Assembly (NCBI GenBank): GCA_031441465.1
Contig: JANOEP010000064.1
Coordinates: 1-63,032 of the forward strand
DNA: 63,032 nucleotides
Source: a bacterium
GTDB taxonomy: Bacteria; Krumholzibacteriota; Krumholzibacteriia; LZORAL124-64-63
Reading direction: 5' to 3'
Shown piece by piece: positions 24,456-60,132 of this stretch. Below the pieces are notes generated by a model, which worked only from the letters and a program-made list of their open reading frames with translations, ran no database searches and had not been told where the DNA came from. Made by a program: the position numbers and the translations under genes. Numbering within the stretch: position 1 is the first letter of the stretch; the number at the start of each line of letters is the position of its first letter.

Positions 24456-27341
24456 CTACTTCATCAGGGTCATCTTGCGGACTTCCGTGTCCGCACCCGC
24501 CACGAGCCGGTAGAAATAGGTCCCGGTCGCCGCGCGCTGCCGCGCGGAGTCCAGGCCGTCCCACACGACCGCATGAGGGCCGGCCGTCATCTGGCCGTCG
24601 ATGAGCGTGCGCACGAGGCTGCCGTCCACCGCGTAGACGCCCAGCCGCACGTGCCGCGCCTCGGGCAGCGCGAAGGCGATGGTCGTTCTGGGGTTGAACG
24701 GGTTGGGGTAGTTCTGGCCGGCCGAGAACCGGACCGGCGTCTGCGGTTCGCCGCCGGTGGTCTGCGACACGCGCAGATCGCCGTTGTCGGTGCGGCGCGC
24801 TTCGATCGCGGGGGCGACCGTCACGTCTGCGCTGAAGGTCACGCGCAGCAGTTCGCCCGCGCCGGCGATGGCGCCGCCGCGGCCCAGCAGGGCGAGGCTG
24901 GCGTCCAGGCCGTTGCGGTCGATGTTGGCCACGAAGGCCGGAGAAACCTGGGCGTCGAGCAGCTCACCTGCGCGGACGTCGCAGACCACCCCGTCGGGCA
25001 GGTCGGCGCGGAGACGCAACCCCTTGAAATCAGCGCAAGGCTCGACCAGCTCGAGCGCCCAGGTGTTCCCATCCAGACGGATCCAGGCCAGGACCGCGTT
25101 CGGTGTGCCGCCGGCGGGCTGCCGCGGCAACACGTTGCCGAAGTTCATGGCGAAGATCATCAGGTCCTCGAAGTCGATCACGTTGTCGGTGGTGGGGATG
25201 CCGAAGCTGCTGGTGTCGTCGGTGGGGCCGACGTCGGCTTCGTTGTCGTAGCCGCCGACGCCGTGGACGTAGCCGAAGGCCGAGCCGAGTTCGTCGATGT
25301 CCTGCACGTCGACGTCGCCGTCGTACGTCGGTGGATCGATGTCGCCCAGCCAGTAATTGGTGCAGCGGTTCATCGGGCCGGCGCCGGGGCCGACGTTGCC
25401 GGCAGCGTCCACGGCGTAGACCTCATAGTAGTAGATGCCGCGCGGCGCGTAGCTGTCGACGTACGTCAGGTCCGTACCGGCCACCGAACTGCTCACCAGC
25501 GACCACTCGAGGCTGGCGTCGGCGGCGGCGCGGTTGGCGGGCCACAGGGGCTGGTTCGGGTTGTCGTCGTCGTACTCGGGGTAGGCCGAGACAGCTTCGT
25601 TGCCCACACCGGTGAGGTGCCAGACGGCACGCCACACCTCATAGTGGTGGACGTCCGAGGCGTTGGCCATGGCCCAATCGAGCGTGACCTGCTCGTGGCC
25701 GGGCTCGGTCGTCAGATCGGTCACGCCAGGCGGCGCGGTGCAGTCCACTGTGAACGAGACCCCGCTCATGTCGGCGAAGATGTCCATGTTGGCCGGATCG
25801 CGCATGCGGTAGCTCTCCACCGCCACATCCACGACGCCGTTGCCGCTGGTCGTCAGGACCAGCGTGAACAGATTGCCAGCGACCTTCAGGCCGGGTGTGG
25901 TGCCCAGGATGGACTCGTTCACCGAGTAGACACCGGCGCCCTCGTCCACCACGTAGAAGACCGTGGTGCCGACCGACGACAGGCCGCCGGCCTTGGCGAA
26001 GTGGAGCGTGGGGTTGATGGGGGCCACCGGACCGGTCACCTTCAGCACGATCTCGTAGCCGCGCAGACCGGGCGTGGCGTCGCCGGGCGCGTAGCTGAAG
26101 GTCACGGTCTTGGTCTGGCCGCACTGCACGGGGTCGGGGCCGCTCGCGGCGGCGGTGACCGTGGCGCTGGCGACGGCAGCCAGACCGGCGATGACCTCAC
26201 CGCAGGTTTCCGTGTAGTGGTAGCCGTTATCGTAGACCCAGCCGCCGGAGATGTGCTGGGTGGAGGCCAACCAGATCGCGCCTTGGCGGGCGGCGGCGCG
26301 CGTGGCGACCGTCGAGGGGAGGTTGTCGGCCAGAGACCGTAACGCGAATCCCGTGCCCTGCCAATCGCGGTCGATTTCGGCCGTGGCCCCGTACTGGTCG
26401 CTGAAGGCGCCGTCAGCATACTGGCAGGACAGCAGCAGGGCCTGCAGCCCGGGCAGTTCGGCGGTGTGGGTGCCGGAGGTCGCGAAGGCGTCGATGATGC
26501 CCGTCACGCCGAGGGTGTACCAGTAGTAGAGCGGCGTGTTCCAGGCCGGATCGCTGCCCTTGTTGGCGCCGTTGGGGCGGAAGTAGCCGGGAACGCCGGC
26601 GAAACTGTCCTGGTAGATGACCTCCGCCATGGCCGCGGCTTCGACGACGTGGCCGGCGAGGGGGAAGGCCTCGTCCATCAGCATGGCCGCCTCGACCCAG
26701 GGTGCGATGTCCCAGGGGATGATGCCGTTGCTGTAGCCTTGGCCGTAGCGGAAGTCGCGGATGAATGCGGCGAGGTTCGCCATCGTCCCGTAGACGCCGA
26801 GCTGACGGTTCCAGATCGCCTGTGCACCCGCCCGGTAAGTGGCCGGGGCGGGGCAGTCCGGCAGGTTGGCGAATTCCAGCAGGAAGATCACGTCCGGACC
26901 TGAGCGGATCACGGTGGGGCCGACGCTGACGATATGGTCGGCGGCGTCCTTCATCGCCGTGAAATAGGCGGGTAGCGGGTTCACGAGATAGGCGCGGTAG
27001 ATGCCCTGCACCGTCGCGCCGTAAGTGTTGTTCGGACTGGCAGCCGTGCTGTGGGTGAAGGCCAGGCATTGCCAGTCCCACCCGCCGTCGTCGGGATCGG
27101 TGTCGGCGGCGCCGTTGCCGGCGTTGTCCTCGGTGAAGTCAGCCTGCATGCCGACCAGGTAGTCGGCGCCGGCCATCATCGACGCCGCGAAGTCTGTCGG
27201 ATCGCCGAAGGCTTTGTCGGCGGTGGGGATGATGCCGCGCACGCCGTCAGGCATACCGTCGGCGGGCGTGGCCGGCGGTCCGGCGGCCCAGGCGCCCGCC
27301 GCGATCAGCAGCAGCGCCAGGAACAAAGTCGTTTTTCTCAT
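24456..27341 (-). CDS. Large secreted protein: alpha/alpha-barrel-like N-terminus, cohesin-like, FN3-like, dockerin-like, FlgD CTD
   Basis: Signal peptide; QxxDGG(W/F)-type motifs (DDGGWDW, CQYADGAF, TQHISGGW); GDIDPPTYDGDVDVQD..FG and DFEDLMIFAMNFG EF-hand-like pair; YPNPFNPRTT..RKMTLMK. Confidence 0.7.
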   Translation of the reverse strand: MRKTTLFLALLLIAAGAWAAGPPATPADGMPDGVRGIIPTADKAFGDPTDFAASMMAGADYLVGMQADFTEDNAGNGAADTDPDDGGWDWQCLAFTHSTAASPNNTYGATVQGIYRAYLVNPLPAYFTAMKDAADHIVSVGPTVIRSGPDVIFLLEFANLPDCPAPATYRAGAQAIWNRQLGVYGTMANLAAFIRDFRYGQGYSNGIIPWDIAPWVEAAMLMDEAFPLAGHVVEAAAMAEVIYQDSFAGVPGYFRPNGANKGSDPAWNTPLYYWYTLGVTGIIDAFATSGTHTAELPGLQALLLSCQYADGAFSDQYGATAEIDRDWQGTGFALRSLADNLPSTVATRAAARQGAIWLASTQHISGGWVYDNGYHYTETCGEVIAGLAAVASATVTAAASGPDPVQCGQTKTVTFSYAPGDATPGLRGYEIVLKVTGPVAPINPTLHFAKAGGLSSVGTTVFYVVDEGAGVYSVNESILGTTPGLKVAGNLFTLVLTTSGNGVVDVAVESYRMRDPANMDIFADMSGVSFTVDCTAPPGVTDLTTEPGHEQVTLDWAMANASDVHHYEVWRAVWHLTGVGNEAVSAYPEYDDDNPNQPLWPANRAAADASLEWSLVSSSVAGTDLTYVDSYAPRGIYYYEVYAVDAAGNVGPGAGPMNRCTNYWLGDIDPPTYDGDVDVQDIDELGSAFGYVHGVGGYDNEADVGPTDDTSSFGIPTTDNVIDFEDLMIFAMNFGNVLPRQPAGGTPNAVLAWIRLDGNTWALELVEPCADFKGLRLRADLPDGVVCDVRAGELLDAQVSPAFVANIDRNGLDASLALLGRGGAIAGAGELLRVTFSADVTVAPAIEARRTDNGDLRVSQTTGGEPQTPVRFSAGQNYPNPFNPRTTIAFALPEARHVRLGVYAVDGSLVRTLIDGQMTAGPHAVVWDGLDSARQRAATGTYFYRLVAGADTEVRKMTLMK

Positions 27342-27450: not shown

Positions 27451-30400
27451 CTACTTCATCAGCAGCATCTTGCGGACCTGGCTGTCCTGGCCCGCTTCGA
27501 TGCGGTAGAAGTAGGCGCCGGAAGCGACGCCCTGGCTCTGGCTGTCGAGGCCGTCCCAGACGACGGTGTGCGGACCGGCCGGCAGCGCGCCGTCCACCAG
27601 CATCCTCACCAGCGACCCGTCCAGCGAGTAGACGGCGAGGCGGACCTCGCGGCTCTCGGGCAGGACGAAGGCGATGGTGGTCTGGGGGTTGAAGGGGTTG
27701 GGGAAGTTCTGGTGCGCGGCGAAGCGCAGCGGCGTGACCGGGGTGATCTCGGTGGTCATGTTGACCGTGAGATCGCCGTTCGCGCCGTCGCGGGCCGACA
27801 CCCGGGGCTGGAGTTCGACGTCGGCGCTGAAAACGACGCGCAGCAGTTCGCCCGCGCCGCCGATCGTGGCGCCCTGCCCCAGCAGTGCCACGCCGGCGTC
27901 GAGGCCGTTGCCCGGTGCGTTGGCGGCGAAGCCGGGGCTGCTCTGCCCGGCCAGCAGTGCGCCGGCCGCGACTTCGCAGGTCACGCCTTCGGGCAGGGGG
28001 GCCGTCAGGTGGAGGCCCTTGAGGTTCGTGCAGGGTTCGGCCAGCAGCAGCGACCACGTCGTGGCGTCGATGCGCTGCCAGACCAGCATCGGGTTTTCGG
28101 TGCCGCCGGCCGGCTGCCGGGCCGGTCCGACGACGCCGAAGTTCTGCGCGAAGATCATCAGGTCTTCGAAGCCTACCGTGCTGTCAGTCAGCGGGATGCC
28201 GCGGCCGCCGTGTGTGTCGGTCGGGCCCACGTCGCAGTGGTTGTTGTAAGACGTGTGGTTACCGCCGAAGCCGTATGAGGCGCCGAGGCGGCTGATGTCC
28301 TGAACATCGACGAGGCCGTTGTAGGCAAGGGGCGGGTCCACGTCGCCGAGCCAGTAGTTGGTGGCGCGGTTGTCGGGCGACGAGCCGGGCCCGAAGTTGC
28401 CGGCCGCGTCCACGGCGTAGACCTCGTAGTAGTAAATGCCGCGCGGCGCGTAACTGTTCACGAAGATCGTGGCCGTGCCGGGAAGTGCGGGTGCGACCAG
28501 AGCCCACTCGGGATTGAGCAGGACGGCCGCGTGGTTGGCCGGCCAGGTCGGTTCCTTGTCCGCTACCATGTCATCGTACTCGGGGTAAGCCGAGGTGACG
28601 TTGTCGCCGGTGTGCCAAAGGGCGCGCCACACCTCGTAGTGGTGCACGTCCGTGGCGACGGCCATCGTCCAGCCGAGGGTGACCTTCTGGTGGCCGGGCG
28701 TCGACGTTAGGTTGGTCACGGCTGGAGGCGCCGTGCAGTCGACCGTGATCGTCGCGCCGGCTACCGTGCTGCCGATGTCGCCGTTGGTCAGGTCGCGTAG
28801 CACGACGGTCGGCATCGTCACGGTGCCGGTCCCGTCGCTGACGGGGTGGAAGGTGATCGCGAACAGATTGGCCGCGGTCGTAAGGCCTGTTGTCCCGCCC
28901 AGGATGGCGCTGTCGACGGTGAAGGTGCCGTTGCCATTGTCGATCGGGAAGAAGTAGTGGTTGCTGAAAGCGTCGAAGGCGTGCAGGTCGGCGATGTCGG
29001 CGGCGCCGAAAGCCAACTGATCCGAACAGTCCACCGTCACCGTGAAGCCGCGCAGAGCGGGCGTCATGGCGTTGGGGACGTAGCGGAAGTTCAGGGTGAC
29101 GGTCTGGCCGCAGTTGATCGGGCCGCTGGCGACGGGCAGGGCGGAGACGTCAGCCATGCCTGTCCAGGGCTCGAACAACACGTGGTCACTCACCTTGTCA
29201 CCGGTGCCGTCGGGGTTCAACGAGGCGTGGTAAGGGCCGCTGGCGGCGCCCCACCAGTTGCTGCGCGCATTGAACGCGAATCCGTTGGTGGGAGTGCCGT
29301 TGACCACCACGCCGTAGTCAGCGATGGGGTTGCCGACGGTACCGTTGTCGTAGATCTGGTTGCCGGAAGCCGAGATGTTGTTTGAGCAGTCGTAGCAGGC
29401 GTACTGCCCGTTGGACGGCGGGCTCTCGAACGTCGGGTTCCAGTAATTGCCGACCAGGTCCACCATCACGCCGTTCCACCCATTGTCGCGGATGATGTTG
29501 TTGGTGAGGGAGACCCCGTCGTTCTTGACATCCATGTACACGCCGCTCTTGCTGTTCCCGTAAATCTGGTTGCCGGTGAGGCTGAGATTCACGGGTCCGT
29601 AAGCGGTCGTCGGACCGGCGATCTTGTCCGAGGCGCCGCGGACCAGCAGGATGCCGTGCCCGTACTTCAGGGCGTTGGGGTTGTCGCCGGGCAGGGCCGT
29701 GTTGTTGTAGATCTTGTTGTTGCTGATCGTCAGGTTGGTGAAGCCGCCCGCGGATTCGATGCCGCTGCGGTGCGAGCCGTAGATCTCGTTGTCGCTGATG
29801 ACCGTGCCGGTCATAGGGGCGGGGCTCGGCGCGCCGTAGGCGAAGTAGGACGACCAGATGAAGATGTTGTCACCGTTGCCCTTGCAGTCGAAGATCTTGT
29901 TGTGCGCAAACGTGCTGCCGATGATGCCGTTGGCGCCGTAGGGATGGTTGACCAGGTACAGGCCCATGCGCCCCTTCGTGCCGTCCTGGCTGGCGAGGTT
30001 CGTGTTGGGGCCGATCACGCAGTTGACCACCTGGATGCCGCTGATCGGCCGCGTAAGGGCGTAGACGCGCACCAGCGATGTGTTGAGATTGCCGACCGCG
30101 TTCAACTCGCCCACCACGAAGCCGTCGAACACCACGTTGTCGGTATCGACGATGTCCACGATGGCGTTGTAGGCGACGGTCGGGTTCGGGTGCGTGATGA
30201 CGCTCTCCACGCCGGTGTTCCAGGTGTAGTTTGCCGGGACAGCGTAGCCGTTCTTGTTCACGCCGGCGGTGGCGCCGAGCACGGTGAGGGACTTGTTGAT
30301 GGATATCGCCTCGACGTAAGAGCCGGGGCGCACGAGGATCGTGTCGCCGGGATCGGCTGCGTCGATGGCGGCCTGGATGCTTGAGTCCACCCCCCAGGAC

Positions 30401-49848: not shown

Positions 49849-50134
49849 GAAATGTCCCCCTCAAGGTTGTTGACGCCAAACCACCGCGGGCGTGCGCCGC
49901 GTGCGGCCTCGGACTTCTGTCCGAAGTCCTTATTTCCTGCTCTCATGGCACGAAAGAGCAAGAAACATCTTGGGTATGCTGCCATTCTAGCATAACCGTA
50001 ACCTGACGAGAAAGTTAATTTTCATCAGAATCATGGGATCCCCCACAATTTGAAGGATCGTTTGCTGAAACGTATAACTCGATGCTATGATTCAAGAAGA
50101 TGTCACCCGCGCCCCGTGTCCCGGAGGAGGCCCC

Positions 50135-52729
50135 ATGAAACCCCGGCTCCGTTCCCACCGCCTCGTGCTCGTCCTGGTGTCCGGCCTGATCCTGGCGGGG
50201 GGTCTCGCTGATCCGGCCCGTGCGGTCCCCCGCACGGTCCTGGGGGAGCTGTTCTCCTCGGCCGGCTGACCCTACTGCCCTTCCGCGGTCGCGGGATTCC
50301 ATGATCTGCTCGCCGCCTACGACAGCACCGAGTTCGTGCCGCTCACCTGGGACACCGGCACCGGCAGCGGCAGCACCCGTTTCAACTACTACGGTTTTTC
50401 GGGGACGCCGACGGCCGTGTTCGACGGGCTGGTCAGCTCCGTCGGCGGTTTGCCCAGCGGCAGCATGTTCGACAGCTACCAGCCGCTGGTGCAGAACCGT
50501 TTGGGCGCCGTCTCGCCCCTGACGATCACCGCGAGCTTCCTGGTCGCCGGGGTGAACGGATCGGTGACCGCCACCATCGAGGTGGCCTCGACCGTGACCA
50601 CGGGAGCCAACCAGGTGCGTTTTTACGTCTATGAGGCGTTGCCCCGGCCCGAGTACCCCAACTACGTGCGCGCGGTCCTGGCGAGCGAACCCTTCGCGCT
50701 GACCGTGCCCGGACAGTCGGTCACCGTCCAGCGCCCGTTCACCGTCGACCCGACGTGGGACCCCGAGCGCCTCGGTGTGATCGTCTTCGTGCAGAGCGAC
50801 GCGAACCGCGCGGTGCTGCAGGCCGTCGAAGCCGAGGCCGACTACGCCGGCGTCCTGACGGTCGACGCCCAGCCGGACGGGCTGGCGGCGCCGTGGACCC
50901 TGAGCGGGCCCGGCGGCTTCTCGCTCGCCGGCGTGGAGGACCGCGTCGTGCGCGTGTTCCTGGCCGGCGAGTACTCCCTGGCCTGGGGCGAGGTGCCCGG
51001 CTGGTCTTCGCCCGCGCCCGCGGTGACGACGGTGCAGCTGGCGCCGGACGACGAGATCACGCTGACGGGCCTCTACACCGACGGCCCCTTCGCGGCCGCG
51101 GCCGATGCGGACCTCGCCATGGCCGGCGCCGCGGCCCGCGGCGTGGCGATCGTCGACGCCGACGAGGACGGCGACCTGGACGTCTACGTCTCGGTCCACG
51201 GTGGCGCGAACGCGCTGCTGATCAACGAGGGCGGCCTGGCCTTCACCTCCGGCGGCCACGCCCTGCTGCGCGGTGTGGGCGCCGGCATGTCCGCGGTCTG
51301 GGCCGACGTGACCGGGGACGGTCACCGCGACGTCTACCTCGTGCGCGACGGCCAAGCCAACCTCCTGCTGCGCGCCGACGGCGCCGGCGGCTACCTCGAC
51401 GCGACCTTCGGCCCCGCGGGCGACACCGGACCAGGGACCTCGGTCGCCGCCGCCGACTACGATCGCGACGGCCTGCTGGATCTCTACGTGGTCAACGGCG
51501 GCACCGCGAACGTCCTGCTGCGCGGCGTGGCCGACATGGGCGTCGCCTGGTTCATGATGAACCAGATGGGGATCATCGCCGACACCGGCAACGGCGCCGG
51601 CGCGGCCTGGGGCGACTACGACAACGACGGCGACCAGGACCTCTACCTGACGAACCGCTTCACCGCCAACCGCCTCTTCCAGAACGGGGGGACCCTCGGC
51701 TGGTACAACGCGACCGGCACGGGCGTGCTGGCCGACACCGGCAACGGCGCCGGCGCGGCCTGGGGCGACTACGACAACGACGGGGACCTCGATCTCTACG
51801 TGGCCAACGACGGCCAGGCCGACCTGCTGATCCGCAACGACCGCGGCACCTGGGCGCTGATCGTCGGGTCGGCCCTGGGAGACGTCGGGCACGGCCGGGG
51901 CGTTGCCTGGGGCGACCTGGACAACGACGGGGACCTGGACCTGTACCTGGCCCGGCACGACGAGCCCGACCTCACGTTGCGCAACGACGGCGGCGGTGTG
52001 TTCACCCGCATCCCCGTGGGCGTGGCGACGGCCGCCGGCGTCGCCGAAGGCGTCGCCCTGGGCGACCTCGACGGCGATGGCGACCTGGACGTTTACATCG
52101 CCAACGACGGGGGACCGAGCGGCCTGCTGCTGAACGAGATGGCCGGCGGCAACCACTGGCTCCACCTGGACCTCACGGCGTCCGGCGCGAACACGTCGGC
52201 CGTAGGCGCCCGCGTCTGGCTGACCGCCGGCGGCGTGCGCCAGATGCGCGAGGTCAACGCCGGTTCCGGCTACCTGTCCCAGGACTCGCCGACGGTCGAG
52301 TTCGGCCTGGGCGGCGCCGCGATCGCCGACACCGTGCACATCCGCTGGCCCGACGGCCAGCAGCAGGTCGTCACCGGTTTGGCCGCCGACCGACGGCTGA
52401 ACGTGCGCCAGGGCGTTCCCGTCGTGGCGCCGCCCCAGGCGGCGGCGTTGCGGCTGCGGCTGGACGAGCCGTTCCCGAACCCGTTCAATCCCGCCACGAC
52501 CCTGCGGTACGAACTGCCGCGGGCCGGGAGCGTCGAACTGCGGATCTACGATGTCGCTGGCCGGCTCGTGCGCTCCCTGCGCTCGGGTGAGGTCGAGGCG
52601 GCGGGACGCCGCGAAGCCGTGTGGGACGGCCGGGACGACGCGGGGCGCGCCGCCGCCGCCGGCGCCTACGTCGTGCGCCTGTCGGCGGGCGGGGAGGCCC
52701 GCAGCCGGCGACTGCTGTTGGTGAAGTAG
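50135..52729 (+). CDS. Predicted secreted selenoprotein: Omp28-like thioredoxin domain (U-P-Y-C), FG-GAP repeats, ASPIC/UnbV, FlgD CTD
   Basis: ORF 50087-50269 and ORF 50336-52729 are in frame across TGA 50267-50269, giving VLGELFSSAG-U-PYCP. GGAGGA RBS and signal peptide lie upstream of the TGA; a hairpin follows it. Confidence 0.85.
50281..50296 (+). promoter_or_regulatory. Candidate bacterial SECIS element
   Basis: TTCCGC-GGTC-GCGGGA hairpin after an 11-nt spacer from the TGA, with GGUC apical loop. Confidence 0.65.
51578..51783 (+). repeat. 53-bp perfect direct repeat (51578-51630 and 51731-51783) within the FG-GAP repeats
   Basis: GCCGACACCGGCAACGGCGCCGGCGCGGCCTGGGGCGACTACGACAACGACGG occurs twice, period 153 bp. 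Confidence 0.85.
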
Positions 52730-57140: not shown

Positions 57141-58748
57141 TCAGAATCGACTGACCAAGCGCAGTTCGACTCCGGTGAAGTCCGGCACCAGGTAACAGGT
57201 ACCCGAGGTGCAGGCGGTGCCGCCGCGCCGGCTGCCGGCGAACAGCGCGGCTTCGTGGTGACGGTTCAGAGGCGCCACCGCCACGGCTCCGATCCAGTGG
57301 CGGGGCTCCGTCTCGACGACGTCGAAGGTCAAGGGATCGTCCTTCTCGTCCGGATCGTTCGAGAATTCGGCCTGCAGGGCCAGCGTGCCTTGGCCCGCCC
57401 GGTCCACCCCGAGACCCAGGAAGATGTTTTCGAAGGCTGACACCTCGCCGAAGGTCGTTCGTTCCGCGCGCTGGTGCTCGGCGTTCAGGCGGAGGCTCAG
57501 CCCCCCACCGAATTCCCGGCCCACGGCGAGGCCCGCCGTGCAGTGGTCGGTGAGCCCCTCGACCTCGTCGCAGCCGGTGGCGGCGAAGACTTCCCAGTGC
57601 CAGAGTGCGAGCGGGTCGCCTTGCAGGGCGACGACGTCGAGTCGGTATTGCTTCAGGCCGTTGACTTCGTTGGCGGCCCGGGCTGATTCGACCTGGAGGG
57701 CCAATTCGCCGGGCAACGAACCCATCAGCGAGATCTGGCGGCCGTGCTCGCCGCCGGCGAGCAGGAAATGGGACATGCGGTTCAGCAGGTGCTGGCTCAT
57801 CTCGGGCACGAGGTTGGGCGGATCGTTCCAGCCGAGGGCGAATCCGTCGTAGTCCTTGGTCTCGAAGCTGGCTCCCCAGCGCCCGACGCTGATCTGGGTC
57901 GCCGTGTAGAAGGCGTGCGGGGTCGTCGCGCCGGTGTCGAGCCCGTCGCCCAGGGGATCCCAGGACTGGCCGGCGTACTCGGCATAAGCCTGCAGATCGA
58001 GGCCGCGCGCCGCCAGCGACGGCGCCAAGCGGGCGGCGCGCAGCGTCAGGTCGGTCGACGCATACTCGGCGAGTTCCGGCGATGAACCCGGGAGCTGGCG
58101 TTCGCTGCGCAGGTAGCCGGCGCCCAGGTCCAGCGCCGGGTGGAGCGTGAAGGTCGCGTGGCCGCCTCCGACGTGGCCTTCGCGGCGGGGCAACGCGACG
58201 ATCCCCGGTGGAACGTCGGGGTAGCGCACCGGTTCGCCGCCGAACAGCAGCGCCGAAACCGGTCCCCGGTTCGCCTCCAGGATCACGCCATCGAGGCTGC
58301 GGGCATCGGCGTACTGGGACGGCGGGAAGACGGCGTCGCGCACGACGCCCCCCAGTTCGAAGGCGCGGAACAGCAGCCCGCGGCCGAGCGTGGCGAAGCC
58401 GTCGCCGAGCCGCAGGCGCAGCCCCTCGTCCTCCCACTCGGCGTACTTCAGGGTGACTTCGTCGTAGCGGGCGGGCAGGAAGCCCTCGTCGCGGGATGGC
58501 TGGTAGCTCTCGGCGCGCAGCCCCGCACGCAGTCCGTCGCGGCTGTACACGAGGTCGAACCGGTCGTAGATGCCCGTCATGGCGTTCGTTTCGGTCAGGG
58601 GGTCCCGTCCCGCCTGCCAGAGCAGGAGGTTCGAGGCCTGCACCGAGCCCGACGAATCGCCGGCGCCGGCGAGCGTTGCCAACGGGTGGACCAGTCGTGA
58701 GCACAGCAGCGAGGCGACGCCGAGCGCGACGAGCCGTGACGTCTTCAT
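57141..58748 (-). CDS. DUF6029-like outer-membrane beta-barrel with C-terminal CxxGxC motif
   Basis: Signal peptide; LGDGFATLGRGLLFRAFE..D..LDG; C-terminal GSRRGGTACTSGTCYLVPDFTGVELRLVSRF ending in Phe; start overlaps the TlpA stop. Confidence 0.75.
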   Translation of the reverse strand: MKTSRLVALGVASLLCSRLVHPLATLAGAGDSSGSVQASNLLLWQAGRDPLTETNAMTGIYDRFDLVYSRDGLRAGLRAESYQPSRDEGFLPARYDEVTLKYAEWEDEGLRLRLGDGFATLGRGLLFRAFELGGVVRDAVFPPSQYADARSLDGVILEANRGPVSALLFGGEPVRYPDVPPGIVALPRREGHVGGGHATFTLHPALDLGAGYLRSERQLPGSSPELAEYASTDLTLRAARLAPSLAARGLDLQAYAEYAGQSWDPLGDGLDTGATTPHAFYTATQISVGRWGASFETKDYDGFALGWNDPPNLVPEMSQHLLNRMSHFLLAGGEHGRQISLMGSLPGELALQVESARAANEVNGLKQYRLDVVALQGDPLALWHWEVFAATGCDEVEGLTDHCTAGLAVGREFGGGLSLRLNAEHQRAERTTFGEVSAFENIFLGLGVDRAGQGTLALQAEFSNDPDEKDDPLTFDVVETEPRHWIGAVAVAPLNRHHEAALFAGSRRGGTACTSGTCYLVPDFTGVELRLVSRF

Positions 58749-59302
58749 TCGGCGGTCCCAGGCGCCGGGTCCAGCAGCGGCAACAGTTCCTGTTCCAGCA
58801 ACCGGACGTCGCCCTCCCGGTAACCACGGTGCAGAGAGCGGATCCGGCCTTCGCGATCGATGAGGAAGGTCATGGGAATGGCCTCCGCCCGGTAGAGCTG
58901 GGACGCCCGCTTCTCGGTATCGATCAGGATCGGGAACGTCAGGCCCAGCGCGCGGGCCGTGGCGCCGATCTTGGGGCGGTTGCGCGGCTCGTCGGTGCTG
59001 ACCGCCAGGACGGTCAGACCGCGCGGCGCGTAGCGGTCGTGCAATTGCTGCAGCTCCGGCAGGGCCTGACGGCAGGGGCCGCACCAGGTCGCCCAGAAGT
59101 CGAGGATCACCGGCCCCCGCTTCAGGGCCTCGCCCAGGACGACGCGATCTCCGGCCACGGTCTCGAGCGAGAACGCGGGGGCCGGCCCGAGGTCCGGTTC
59201 GGCCGTCGTGGCGTCTGCCGCACACCGGGACGCCACGGCCAGGGCGAGCAGCGCGGCGATGATGCTGGCGGAGCGCAGCTGGCCGGAGCCTGACGATGCC
59301 AT
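58745..59302 (-). CDS. TlpA-family thiol-disulfide oxidoreductase
   Basis: N-terminal hydrophobic segment; APAFSL, VILDFWATWCGPC, IPMTFLIDREG. Confidence 0.92.
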   Translation of the reverse strand: MASSGSGQLRSASIIAALLALAVASRCAADATTAEPDLGPAPAFSLETVAGDRVVLGEALKRGPVILDFWATWCGPCRQALPELQQLHDRYAPRGLTVLAVSTDEPRNRPKIGATARALGLTFPILIDTEKRASQLYRAEAIPMTFLIDREGRIRSLHRGYREGDVRLLEQELLPLLDPAPGTAE

Positions 59303-59310
59303 GCGACCTC

Positions 59311-60132
59311 CTACTTCAACAGGGTGACGAAACGCGACTGGCTCCGGCCGTCGACCGTGAGTTCGACGAGGTAATTGCCGCTGACCAGAGTACGGCCGCC
59401 AGCATCACGACCGTCCCAGTCGGCCACGTAGTCCCGCGCGCCGTCGTGGTGCCCGTCGACGAGCGTGCGCAGGACACGCCCCTGCACGTCCAGGATCCGC
59501 AACCGCACCTGCCGGCTGCCGTCGCCGTCGATCCGGTAGGCCAGGGTCGTGCTCGGATTGAAGGGGTTCGGGTAGCCCGGCCGCAGGCTGAACCCGTCGC
59601 GCGACGGTGTACCGGCAGCGGTGGGCAGGTCCGCCAGGGCGAGGTTGATCGCGGCGGTCGTCAGGGCCAGGTTCCAGCCGCTGCGGCGGAAGGTGATCAG
59701 CCCGTCTCCGCCGACGACGAAGAAGATGTCGTAGGTGCAGGCGTAGCTCGAGCCGATGCCGGCGGCGGCCGCGCCCATCAGTGCCGGGTAGGTGATGCCG
59801 GTGACCGAGAGGAAGGAATTGGTCTGGCTGAGGTTGCCGCCCCACATTTCCAGGCCGAGAGCCTGGAAATCCGGTCCGGCGAAGCTGTTGGCCATCGTCT
59901 GCGTGGACGGACCCGCCGCCCGGCAGCTGCTTCAGCCATGGCCGAACATGAACAGGAATTTCACCCTGCCGTCGTAGTCGGACAGGCTGTGTGTCTGGCC
60001 GGTCGTGCTCTGGAGGGTGAAACCGGCGGCGACGTCGCCGACCTGTCCGGTCGCTCCCGCAGTGCCGGCCACCAGCGCCAGCGCGGCGACGCCCAGCGCG
60101 GCCGCTCTCGTGAGGGGAGATCTGGTATTCAT
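59311..60132 (-). CDS. Predicted secreted selenoprotein: AhpC/TSA-TlpA-like redoxin (U-S-S-C) with FlgD CTD
   Basis: ORF 59932-60186 and ORF 59311-59895 are in frame across TGA 59934-59932: QVGDVAAGFTL..HSLSDYDGRVKFLFMFGHG-U-SSCRAAGP. AAGGA RBS and signal peptide; YPNPFNPSTT tail. Confidence 0.85.
59905..59921 (-). promoter_or_regulatory. Candidate bacterial SECIS element
   Basis: GGGCGG-CGGGT-CCGTCC hairpin after a 10-nt spacer from the TGA, with G-rich GGU loop. Confidence 0.6.

Follow-up and report, generated by a model that had tools for sequence, protein, structure and literature searches.

A selenoprotein family predicted from ocean metagenomes in 2008, "hypothetical protein GOS_C" (Zhang and Gladyshev, PMC2398784), combines a thioredoxin-like fold with a conserved UxxC motif and is displayed there as short marine fragments with no FG-GAP or ASPIC part. 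The main text of that paper, from which the terms "omp28" and "signal peptide" are absent, names for GOS_C no relation to Omp28 or HBP35, no signal peptide, and no secretion tail. NCBIfam holds a model for an "Omp28-related selenoprotein" (NF045500). HBP35 of Porphyromonas gingivalis (5Y1A) joins a thioredoxin domain, a beta-sandwich, and a type IX tail. As described in PMC2907840, HBP35 binds hemin, is required for growth under scarce hemin, and acts as a thioredoxin in vitro, for which it needs its two Cys residues. Literature searches found no work joining Omp28 to a selenoprotein and nothing relevant joining a selenoprotein to type IX secretion, and a broader search returned nothing on the family in titles or abstracts.

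The window (the whole stretch of DNA analyzed, 63,032 nucleotides) carries at 50135-52729 a gene that very probably encodes a secreted selenoprotein, with Sec45 inserted under the guidance of a SECIS-like element, export by the type IX system, and a function in thiol/selenol redox chemistry. We base this reading on sequence comparison, a structure model, and analogy with described proteins. Its features are as follows.

50123..50129, plus strand: Shine-Dalgarno-like GGAGGAG, 5 nt ahead of the ATG, read from the sequence
50135..52729, plus strand: whole coding sequence, 864 codons plus TAG (52727-52729), with UGA45 as Sec
50135..50224, plus strand: putative signal peptide, residues 1-30, from reading the translation
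50225..50503, plus strand: thioredoxin-fold domain, residues 31-123 (AlphaFold pLDDT 93.5, PDB profile matches)
50267..50269, plus strand: UGA, predicted Sec codon 45, first position of the U-P-Y-C redox motif
50276..50278, plus strand: TGC, Cys48, resolving Cys of U-P-Y-C, invariant in 71 of 71 aligned sequences
50281..50296, plus strand: SECIS-like hairpin UUCCGC-GGUC-GCGGGA, 11 nt past the UGA
50519..50845, plus strand: Omp28/HBP35-type beta-sandwich, residues 129-237 (5y1a and 2r2c matches, weak Pfam Omp28 match)
50846..51124, plus strand: beta-rich linker, residues 238-330, no Pfam match, limits approximate
51155..52090, plus strand: FG-GAP/VCBS repeats, six D-x-[DN]-x-D-G-x-x-D motifs, residues 341-652
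52199..52399, plus strand: UnbV/ASPIC domain, residues 689-755 (Pfam 81.9 bits versus a cut-off of 23.4)
52472..52726, plus strand: type IX type A C-terminal sorting domain, FlgD-Ig-like, residues 780-864

A first-pass annotation had described a ribosome-binding site, a signal peptide, and an in-frame TGA upstream of a 797-codon open reading frame, giving an 864-aa product with Sec at residue 45, and these statements were reproduced. GGAGGAG (50123-50129) precedes the ATG at 50135, and the N terminus, MKPRLRSHRLVLVLVSGLILAGGLADPARA-VP, is signal-peptide-like as judged from its letters, the translation showing a basic n-region, a hydrophobic core, and A-R-A ahead of V31. Downstream of the signal peptide lies RTVLGELFSSAG-TGA-PYCP, whose TGA is in frame with the 797-codon ORF at 50336..52729 and is the only TGA in the reading frame. 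The motifs YYGFSGTPTAVFDG and W..ERLGVIVFVQ..VLQA, earlier read as Omp28-like, are present and occupy nearly invariant columns of a 71-sequence alignment. The genes nearby (an ABC-F ATPase downstream and unnamed ORFs upstream) give no hint of function.

The gene belongs to the selenoprotein family predicted in 2008, and its novelty is modest, since a UxxC thioredoxin-fold family with U-P-Y-C-P was published in 2008 and the NCBIfam model exists. Two GOS_C sequences in Dataset S2 of PMC2398784 share the same U-P-Y-C-P and, compared by eye, read ...DFTGLN-U-PYCP[AS]AS... followed late by ...VQN...[IF][LQ]QA..., like this protein. NF045500 aligns over model positions 39-279 with head residues 33-249 (E 5.3e-8), but the score of 32.6 bits versus a cut-off of 200 marks a distant relation; none of the 208 phylum genomes reached that cut-off, the best score being 71.8. 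A word-based protein search with the 260-aa head found only two proteins, of 143-455 aa.

The structure model of the head (AlphaFold pLDDT 93.5, pTM 0.87) shows a thioredoxin fold, with a strand at 5-11, the motif at residues 15-18, and a helix at 18-31 in model numbering. The motif lies just ahead of the first helix, in agreement with alignments to 1fo5 and 1nho. The top structural matches were HBP35 (E 1.1e-10, TM 0.68), 2axo, and the Omp28 domain 2r2c. HBP35 was also matched by profile (E 9.3e-7, positions 3-211), and its layout is matched exactly by 347-aa paralogues in this phylum. The present protein differs from HBP35, which has Cys (CGYC) in place of Sec and no propeller, and identity between the two is ~16%. 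The proposed Omp28-like character holds at the level of the beta-sandwich, which matches 2r2c (TM 0.74 on the target), but not by Pfam Omp28 (PF11551), for which this protein scores 22.9 bits, below the cut-off of 34.9. Two of four relatives tested, L137 and L138, pass that cut-off (35.5 and 36.3).

Pfam confirmed the three domains that had been assigned to the rest of the protein, i.e., the FG-GAP propeller, the ASPIC/UnbV domain, and the FlgD-type C-terminal domain. FG-GAP_3 scored 137.3 bits versus a cut-off of 26.9 over seven stretches. The sorting tail scored 46.2 bits versus 27 for FlgD_ig and 24.2 versus 23 for TIGR04183, a narrow pass, and it resembles the tail of PorU itself. As in CRTAC1-like proteins, FG-GAP and UnbV/ASPIC are both present, each far over its Pfam cut-off. 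Propeller-only relatives with 25-33% identity occur in metagenome-assembled genomes (MAGs) labelled Gemmatimonadota, in Bacteroidota isolates (Zobellia and Aequorivita), and elsewhere; unlike the present protein, they lack the Sec head and match only from about residue 300 onward.

Conservation of the TGA was analyzed by a search of 208 genomes of the phylum, which yielded 146 matches. Exactly one TGA fell within the match in 125 of the 146, and none in the other 21. Among the 66 orthologue-level matches (E <= 8.9e-42), 64 contained the TGA, and the remaining two begin at query residues 58 and 66, past the TGA site. Mapping by tblastn placed a TGA at the aligned site in all 34 loci of orthologues in other genomes; of the 20 paralogue loci fetched, 19 also have it there, and the mapping does not cover the site in the remaining one (L092). 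Orthologues with the TGA and coding sequence kept on both sides reach down to ~40% identity. Up to five head paralogues were matched per genome, some of them in tandem arrays. The motif reads U-A-Y-C and U-T-Y-C in loci L037 and L039. Among assembled reads, the single contig identical over the stretch stems from a run flagged as a possible source of the sequence and is not independent. The TGA is also spanned by divergent contigs, one set from a DNA run (X4) and one from an RNA library (X20); the 40 of 152 differences listed include none at 50267-50269, and the RNA-library contig is no proof of transcription. The reading given here takes no support from these contigs.

Homologues lacking the TGA encode Cys at this position. 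All 18 that were fetched (from 19 such matches in the phylum search) carry a Cys codon, TGC or TGT, at the aligned place, and in the 71-sequence alignment no column is invariant other than the Sec/Cys site and the Cys three residues later. Sec was expected to align with the first Cys of CxxC, and it does so in these 18 homologues and in the solved thioredoxins, HBP35, and Atu2684, the site pairing with the first Cys of CPHC, CPYC, CGYC, and CASC in 1fo5, 1nho, HBP35 (5y1a), and 2axo, respectively. The 44 residues upstream of the TGA, whose failure to align would have counted against the gene model, can be aligned with homologues read as one continuous frame.

The genome encodes the machinery for Sec insertion, the absence of which had been named as an argument against a selenoprotein: selB (359 bits), selA (437 bits), selD (343 bits), and tRNA-Sec (67.8 bits) were all identified over curated cut-offs, and selD carries a TGA of its own. 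Because selA is present in 88 of the 91 genomes of the taxonomic family, there is no contrast for testing its co-occurrence with the gene. TGA is the commonest stop codon, closing 21 of the 31 GC3-filtered ORFs of the window, which indicates that the codon is not reassigned.

In the E. coli fdhF SECIS, a bulged U together with the G and U of the loop contacts SelB. Reading the fdhF sequence as TGA, 11 nt, and GGTTGCA-GGTC-TGCACC bears out the earlier comparison of geometry and GGUC loop, the 11-nt distance from the UGA to the upper stem and the loop letters being identical here (TTCCGC at 50281-50286, GGTC at 50287-50290, and GCGGGA at 50291-50296). The present hairpin differs in having a 6-bp stem and in lacking both the bulged U and a lower stem. 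Its stability is not unusual relative to shuffled sequence (z of +0.94, -0.40, and -1.21 for 76, 40, and 23 nt), the minimum-energy fold of 40 nt favors a competing hairpin, and the minimum free energy over 45 nt past the codon does not split Sec from Cys forms (means of -11.4, -14.6, and -10.3 kcal/mol). Rfam searched over 50200-50400 with E up to 10 gave chance matches only and no SECIS family. Support for the hairpin is therefore comparative, not thermodynamic.

That comparative support is as follows. Counting a hairpin if it reached -4 kcal/mol or lower and started 9-13 nt past the codon, we found one in every one of the 30 distinct orthologues, in 11 of the 19 paralogues with a TGA, and in 4 of the 18 forms with Cys, versus a background of 7-10%. 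The closing pair, formed by the last bases of a Pro codon and a Gly codon, is UA in 17 of the 30 orthologues, GC in 3, AU in 2, CG in 2, and other in 6, thus covering four Watson-Crick types, and one inner stem pair switches from CG to UA. Shuffle and resampling statistics overstate significance here because the sequences are related; with this limit, the covariation score was 0.129 versus 0.043 in shuffles (0 of 500 reached 0.129) and exceeded every slid control, and synonymous resampling gave expectations of 8.6 hairpins for the orthologues, 7.2 for the TGA paralogues, and 4.5 for the Cys forms. As judged from these alignments, the hairpin is position-specific among orthologues, and the TGA paralogues show a weak positional signal (11 of 19 seen versus 7.2 expected). 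In 8 of the 30 orthologue sequences, the stem forms only if its register is moved by one base. The hairpin is too short to inform a covariance model. Being so small and lying wholly within conserved codons, it would serve well for probing how little SelB requires of its RNA outside E. coli.

The functional SECIS might instead be a competing stem, ACUGC/GCGGU (50274-50278 with 50285-50289), or a longer structure. RNAalifold and single-sequence folding both pick this stem, which lies nearer the UGA, and across 34 sequences its pairs are all kept or altered on one side only. It shows no two-sided change and no covariation, and its loop would fall 9 nt past the UGA, nearer than in fdhF, whereas the UUCCGC-GGUC-GCGGGA hairpin has the four closing-pair types, does better than slid controls, and recurs at the same offset in paralogues of differing sequence; we consider the competing stem improbable as the functional element. 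A doubt that goes further accepts decoding of UGA45 but not as Sec, by near-cognate Trp or Cys or by local recoding that is free of SelB. The small, thermodynamically unexceptional hairpin would fit such read-through, as would the fact that the Sec reading is comparative throughout. We nevertheless judge it very unlikely, given the full Sec machinery here and the distribution of selA in the family, the fdhF-like placement of the hairpin, and the fact that the related GOS_C was predicted to be a selenoprotein family for the same reasons (PMC2398784). The site is moreover the catalytic Cys of CxxC and is Cys in every TGA-less homologue, a classic Sec/Cys pair.

That the TGA genuinely ends translation or reflects a defect (a pseudogene, an assembly error, or a 44-codon leader followed by a separate protein starting at GTG 50336) is scarcely credible. 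Public records of this gene and its orthologues do start downstream, with products of 797, 796, 769, and 810 aa, and TGA ends more ORFs of the window than any other stop, but conservation contradicts a stop: the codon and both flanks are kept in every one of the 34 orthologue loci, and the 18 homologues without it have an open frame with Cys at this position. Starting at 50336 would also delete the signal peptide and cut the confidently modelled thioredoxin fold. A different question concerns the function of the head, which might serve mainly in ligand binding (haem or metal capture as in HBP35), with Sec and Cys acting as ligands or forming a structural selenenylsulfide. The top structural match, HBP35, binds hemin (PMC2907840), and the D-x-D-x-D-G motifs of the FG-GAP repeats resemble calcium sites. 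Invariance of the U/C-x-x-C pair alone across 71 sequences points instead to redox chemistry, as does the need of HBP35 thioredoxin activity for its two Cys (PMC2907840), so that a chiefly ligand-binding role seems unlikely to us.

On the favored reading, a redox-active secreted selenoprotein, SelB with Sec-tRNA(Sec) would decode UGA45 as Sec under the guidance of the minimal hairpin 11 nt downstream. The signal peptide would carry the chain across the inner membrane, with cleavage probably after Ala30, leaving a mature N terminus in which the thioredoxin-fold domain is predicted to pack on the Omp28/HBP35-type beta-sandwich. In the predicted active site, U45-P-Y-C48, alignment and model place Sec at the position of the attacking first Cys of CxxC. 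Pfam matches show a seven-bladed FG-GAP propeller next, followed by the UnbV/ASPIC domain. The type A sorting domain would then target the chain for type IX secretion to the cell surface, where it would probably stay attached, as the tail and the machinery genes suggest. SprA was identified in this genome (470.8 bits summed versus a cut-off of 200); a PorU-like protein (403 bits versus 420) and a PorV-like protein (95 bits versus 250), encoded by adjoining genes on contig C10, fall below their curated cut-offs. By analogy with HBP35, the likeliest activity would be selenol/thiol-disulfide exchange, acting on substrates outside the cell that the propeller would bind; the adhesin-like role proposed earlier is conjectural.

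A wider proposal, which we hold to be doubtful, is that the type IX system of this uncultured phylum exports a set of Sec enzymes, placing selenium redox chemistry on the cell surface, with the propeller capturing a substrate that the Sec head reduces. Besides the head paralogues noted above, a Sec-containing AhpC/TSA-like protein with the same tail is encoded 9-11 kb away in several genomes. If the proposal were true, the protein would be a selenoenzyme of the cell surface carrying its own platform for binding substrate, reducing power would have to cross the outer membrane, and candidate substrates would include a disulfide-rich polymer or an oxidized metal or metalloid. The gene also raises the question of what keeps an extracellular selenol reduced.

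Gene callers cut the gene at codon 45 across a lineage known only from metagenome-assembled genomes, so the first 67 residues, including the signal peptide and the active site, are missing from public records, where the remainder is named "VCBS repeat-containing protein" or "T9SS type A sorting domain-containing protein." Correct models would give this gene and its paralogues in the phylum (125 TGA-bearing matches) back their secreted redox head and would improve estimates of selenium use by these sediment and sludge bacteria. The gene extends a 2008 family published as a bare "hypothetical" fragment, ties it to HBP35/Omp28 structures and type IX secretion, and shows a GOS_C-like head fused to a propeller.

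A second UGA-at-Cys case had been reported in the window, and the gene exists, on the minus strand at 59311-60132 with its TGA at 59934-59932 (FLFMFGHG-U-SSC). Scans of the genome for TGA-split frames with GC3 filters returned mostly adjacent genes sharing one frame; the stricter filter missed the gene at 50135-52729, which the other filter listed. Beyond the two genes of the window and selD, only C61:13270 (..GCVG-U-GHG..) and C66:66082 (..EPCG-U-HG..) were candidate-like in these scans.

We re-read the gene at 50135-52729 (+), for which the first-pass annotation had proposed a selenoprotein with selenocysteine (Sec) at residue 45, and found its statements on the frame, TGA, hairpin, and ORF all correct. 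The frame from ATG 50135 reads MKPRLRSHRLVLVLVSGLILAGGLADPARA-VPRTVLGELFSSAG, then TGA, then PYCPSAVAG..., and this upstream part is in frame with a 797-codon ORF (table 11 start GTG 50336) ending at TAG 52727-52729. The read-through product has 864 residues. The relevant features are as follows:

50123-50129, + strand, Shine-Dalgarno-like GGAGGAG, read in the sequence, with ATG 50135 five bases on
50267-50269, + strand, in-frame TGA, codon 45
50281-50296, + strand, hairpin TTCCGC-GGTC-GCGGGA, 11 nt after the TGA

Public protein records for this gene and its orthologues are only 797, 796, 769, and 810 aa long and carry the name 'VCBS repeat-containing protein' or 'T9SS type A sorting domain-containing protein'. 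Because these records are truncated, the selenoprotein is hidden in public databases.

The Sec machinery on which the proposal depended is present in the window's genome (3.49 Mb, 74 contigs, 96.8% complete): selB (359 bits), selA (437), selD (343), and tRNA-Sec (67.8) all exceeded their curated cut-offs. The selD gene (G000:C25:35277-36200, in this same genome) has one in-frame TGA, making selenophosphate synthetase itself a selenoprotein.

Conservation of the TGA was analyzed by a six-frame search of 208 genomes of the phylum, using the 260-residue N-terminal part as query. The search returned 146 match rows from 91 genomes, 125 with exactly one TGA and 21 with none, and no stop other than TGA occurred inside any of the 146. 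We took as orthologues the 66 rows with E <= 8.9e-42, which are 39-100% identical and mostly have open frames of 800-1100 aa; 64 had the TGA, and the remaining two start at query residues 58 and 66, leaving codon 45 uncovered. Site mapping by tblastn on 72 fetched loci placed a TGA at the aligned codon in all 34 orthologue loci, within the motif U-[P/A/T]-Y-C-P, and in 19 of 20 paralogue loci drawn from 61 TGA-bearing paralogue rows (the remaining locus, L092, was uncovered by the alignment). TGC or TGT occupied this codon in each of the 18 fetched TGA-less homologues, which represent all but one of 19 such rows, the omitted one being a 62-residue match. The site is kept as TGA or Cys in the mapped loci, and the 44 residues upstream of it align with homologues that read straight through, as the first reading required. 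In a 71-sequence protein alignment, the sole invariant columns were the Sec/Cys site and the Cys three residues on.

TGA has not been reassigned in this organism: 21 of the 31 window ORFs passing a GC3 filter end in TGA (the other 10 in TAG). Of 91 genomes in the taxonomic family, 88 yielded selA, and the three that did not are 72-88% complete. Since the TGA is conserved across homologues and unreassigned, TGA-less homologues carry Cys, and selA is widespread, a sequencing error, a pseudogene, and two separate genes are all ruled out for 50135-52729. Judged from sequence, TGA45 very probably encodes selenocysteine. The coding and architecture described here are, taken together, only slightly less probable, and an enzymatic role, suggested by analogy, would be much less certain.

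The downstream hairpin, a SECIS candidate, is real, though weak when taken on its own. Folding gives -8.1 kcal/mol (z -1.21) for the 23-nt hairpin and -9.5 kcal/mol (z -0.40) for a 40-nt piece, which favours a competing stem; a 76-nt piece around the site has z +0.94. RNAalifold also picks the competing stem, which has no two-sided change, and an Rfam search of the region returned nothing for the hairpin. Comparison between sequences supports the hairpin better than stability does: across 34 sequences (30 distinct), 81% of hairpin cells are paired, compared with 22-63% in slid controls. The closing pair lies in fourfold-degenerate third positions of Pro and Gly codons (UA 17, GC 3, AU 2, CG 2, other 6), and one inner pair switches from CG to UA. 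Covariation scores 0.129, whereas shuffled alignments give 0.043 +/- 0.015 and none of 500 reaches the observed value. Eight sequences have the second Ala replaced by Arg or Ser and form a 5-bp stem, one base off in register, with a 5-nt loop.

A simple hairpin of <= -4 kcal/mol starting 9-13 nt after the codon was present in 30/30 distinct orthologues, 11/19 TGA paralogues, and 4/18 Cys homologues (background elsewhere in the same genes, 7-10%), whereas synonymous-codon resampling with each gene's own usage expects 8.6, 7.2, and 4.5, respectively; kinship among the sequences means that these numbers overstate independence. The comparison indicates that the hairpin is maintained by codon choice in orthologues and is at chance in Cys forms. 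E. coli fdhF reads TGA, 11 nt, GGTTGCA-GGTC-TGCACC, so the claimed identity of spacing and loop was borne out. E. coli SelB is bound by the SECIS loop G and U plus a bulged U; unlike the E. coli SECIS, the window hairpin has no bulged U.

Pfam matched the FG-GAP, UnbV/ASPIC, and FlgD-type parts of the first-pass annotation:

seven stretches, FG-GAP_3, 137.3 bits
residues 689-755, UnbV_ASPIC, 81.9 bits
residues 791-851, FlgD_ig, 46.2 bits

The middle of the gene comprises a linker, FG-GAP repeats with six clear D-x-[DN]-x-D-G-x-x-D motifs, and the UnbV/ASPIC domain. At the N-terminus, the Pfam match to Omp28 was sub-threshold (22.9 vs cut-off 34.9), as were those to DUF1223 and Thioredoxin_3. 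An AlphaFold model of residues 31-260 from the 71-sequence alignment (pLDDT 93.5, pTM 0.87) predicts with confidence a thioredoxin fold at model residues 1-93 and, after it, a beta-sandwich at 99-207, with U-x-x-C at model residues 15-18, directly before the first helix. The top Foldseek match in the PDB was HBP35 of Porphyromonas gingivalis (5y1a; E 1.1e-10, TM 0.68); Atu2684 (2axo, DUF1223 type) scored E 7.1e-8, and a domain of P. gingivalis Omp28 (2r2c) ranked seventh (TM 0.74 on target). By sequence, the alignment profile matched archaeal thioredoxins 1fo5 and 1nho, HBP35, and 2axo, and the Sec column coincided with the first Cys of CxxC in each of the four alignments printed, as anticipated. 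As described for HBP35, a thioredoxin motif is joined to a C-terminal domain for surface attachment; its thioredoxin activity is abolished by mutating both Cys, and it also binds hemin (PMC2907840).

Four fully read relatives (689, 347, and 693 aa with TGA; 684 aa with Cys) share a layout of signal peptide, U/CxxC head, variable middle, and FlgD-Ig-like tail; two pass the Omp28 Pfam cut-off, and the 347-aa relative has the HBP35 layout of head and tail only.

The gene is a divergent, mis-annotated member of a selenoprotein kind already known. Zhang and Gladyshev (2008) describe 'hypothetical protein GOS_C' as having a Trx-like fold, SECIS-like elements, and a UxxC that is conserved; they list 74 sequences with Sec alongside 312 homologues with Cys and give no known function (PMC2398784). 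Dataset S2 of that paper includes ...DFTGLN-U-PYCP[AS]AS... and a late ...VQN...[IF][LQ]QA... motif (PMC2398784), whose counterparts here are ...LFSSAG-U-PYCPSAV... and ...VFVQSDANRAVLQA. Compared by eye, these stretches suggest one superfamily. NCBIfam NF045500, 'Omp28-related selenoprotein', matched residues 33-249 at 32.6 bits (cut-off 200), a cut-off reached in none of the 208 genomes (best 71.8 bits). Literature searches joining 'Omp28' and 'selenoprotein' found none, and those on 'selenoprotein' and 'type IX secretion' nothing relevant. New traits are the FG-GAP/ASPIC propeller fusion, a SECIS candidate that is very small and sits within conserved codons, and links to HBP35/Omp28 structures and to type IX secretion.

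TIGR04183 (type A sorting domain, type IX secretion) scored 24.2 against a cut-off of 23. The genome encodes an SprA homologue (470.8 bits summed, cut-off 200) and, directly adjoining on contig C10, PorU-like (403 bits over the whole model, cut-off 420) and PorV-like (95 bits, cut-off 250) genes. The PorU C-terminal tail is matched at about fifty further places, including this gene (52472-52687). Because of these genes and the shared tail, it is reasonable to infer that the protein is exported by type IX secretion. The FlgD-Ig-like tail occurs about fifty times in this genome, with at least 58 scored matches per genome in relatives, a recurrence that suggests a large set of type IX cargo proteins in these bacteria. 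The window holds at least four such tails, including:

24492-24728, - strand, FlgD-Ig-like tail
27490-27804, - strand, FlgD-Ig-like tail

The closest public records (proteins 83-84% identical) are metagenome-assembled genomes labelled Fibrobacter sp., Gemmatimonas sp., Candidatus Latescibacterota, or 'bacterium'; given these varied labels, the lineage has no settled name. Genes beside 50135-52729 gave no functional hint. A second TGA-at-Cys gene with a hairpin, also claimed for this window, was found nearby:

59311-60132, - strand, second Sec gene, TGA 59934-59932, with signal peptide, AhpC/TSA-like match (33.3 bits), and the same FlgD-Ig-like tail
57141-59225, - strand, 694-aa ORF with a DUF6029 match (51 bits), directly downstream of the second Sec gene

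This is presumably the 'first' hidden selenoprotein of the first-pass annotation. Its Sec motif is FLFMFGHG-U-SSC, a 6-bp hairpin (GGGCGG-CGGGU-CCGUCC) lies 10 nt after the UGA, and, among the matches listed from relatives, all 22 that extend to the Sec site (query residue 91) carry one TGA. At least five further genomes (G002:C358, G003:C7, G004:C1, G001:C15, and G018:C2), one of them from a different genus, have the two Sec genes on one contig, 9-11 kb apart; the proximity is conserved.

Elsewhere in the phylum, head paralogues form tandem arrays of three:

G023:C7:309893-315082
G040:C14:78925-81740
G045:C5:45981-48801

Most array copies have TGA and a few match without it, as if the genes had duplicated locally and switched between Sec and Cys. 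In the window's genome, two more coding-like frames contain an in-frame TGA with Cys nearby and may mark additional selenoproteins:

G000:C61:13270, + strand, ..HVLGCVG-U-GHGDD..
G000:C66:66082, + strand, ..KFEPCG-U-HGNPRGG..
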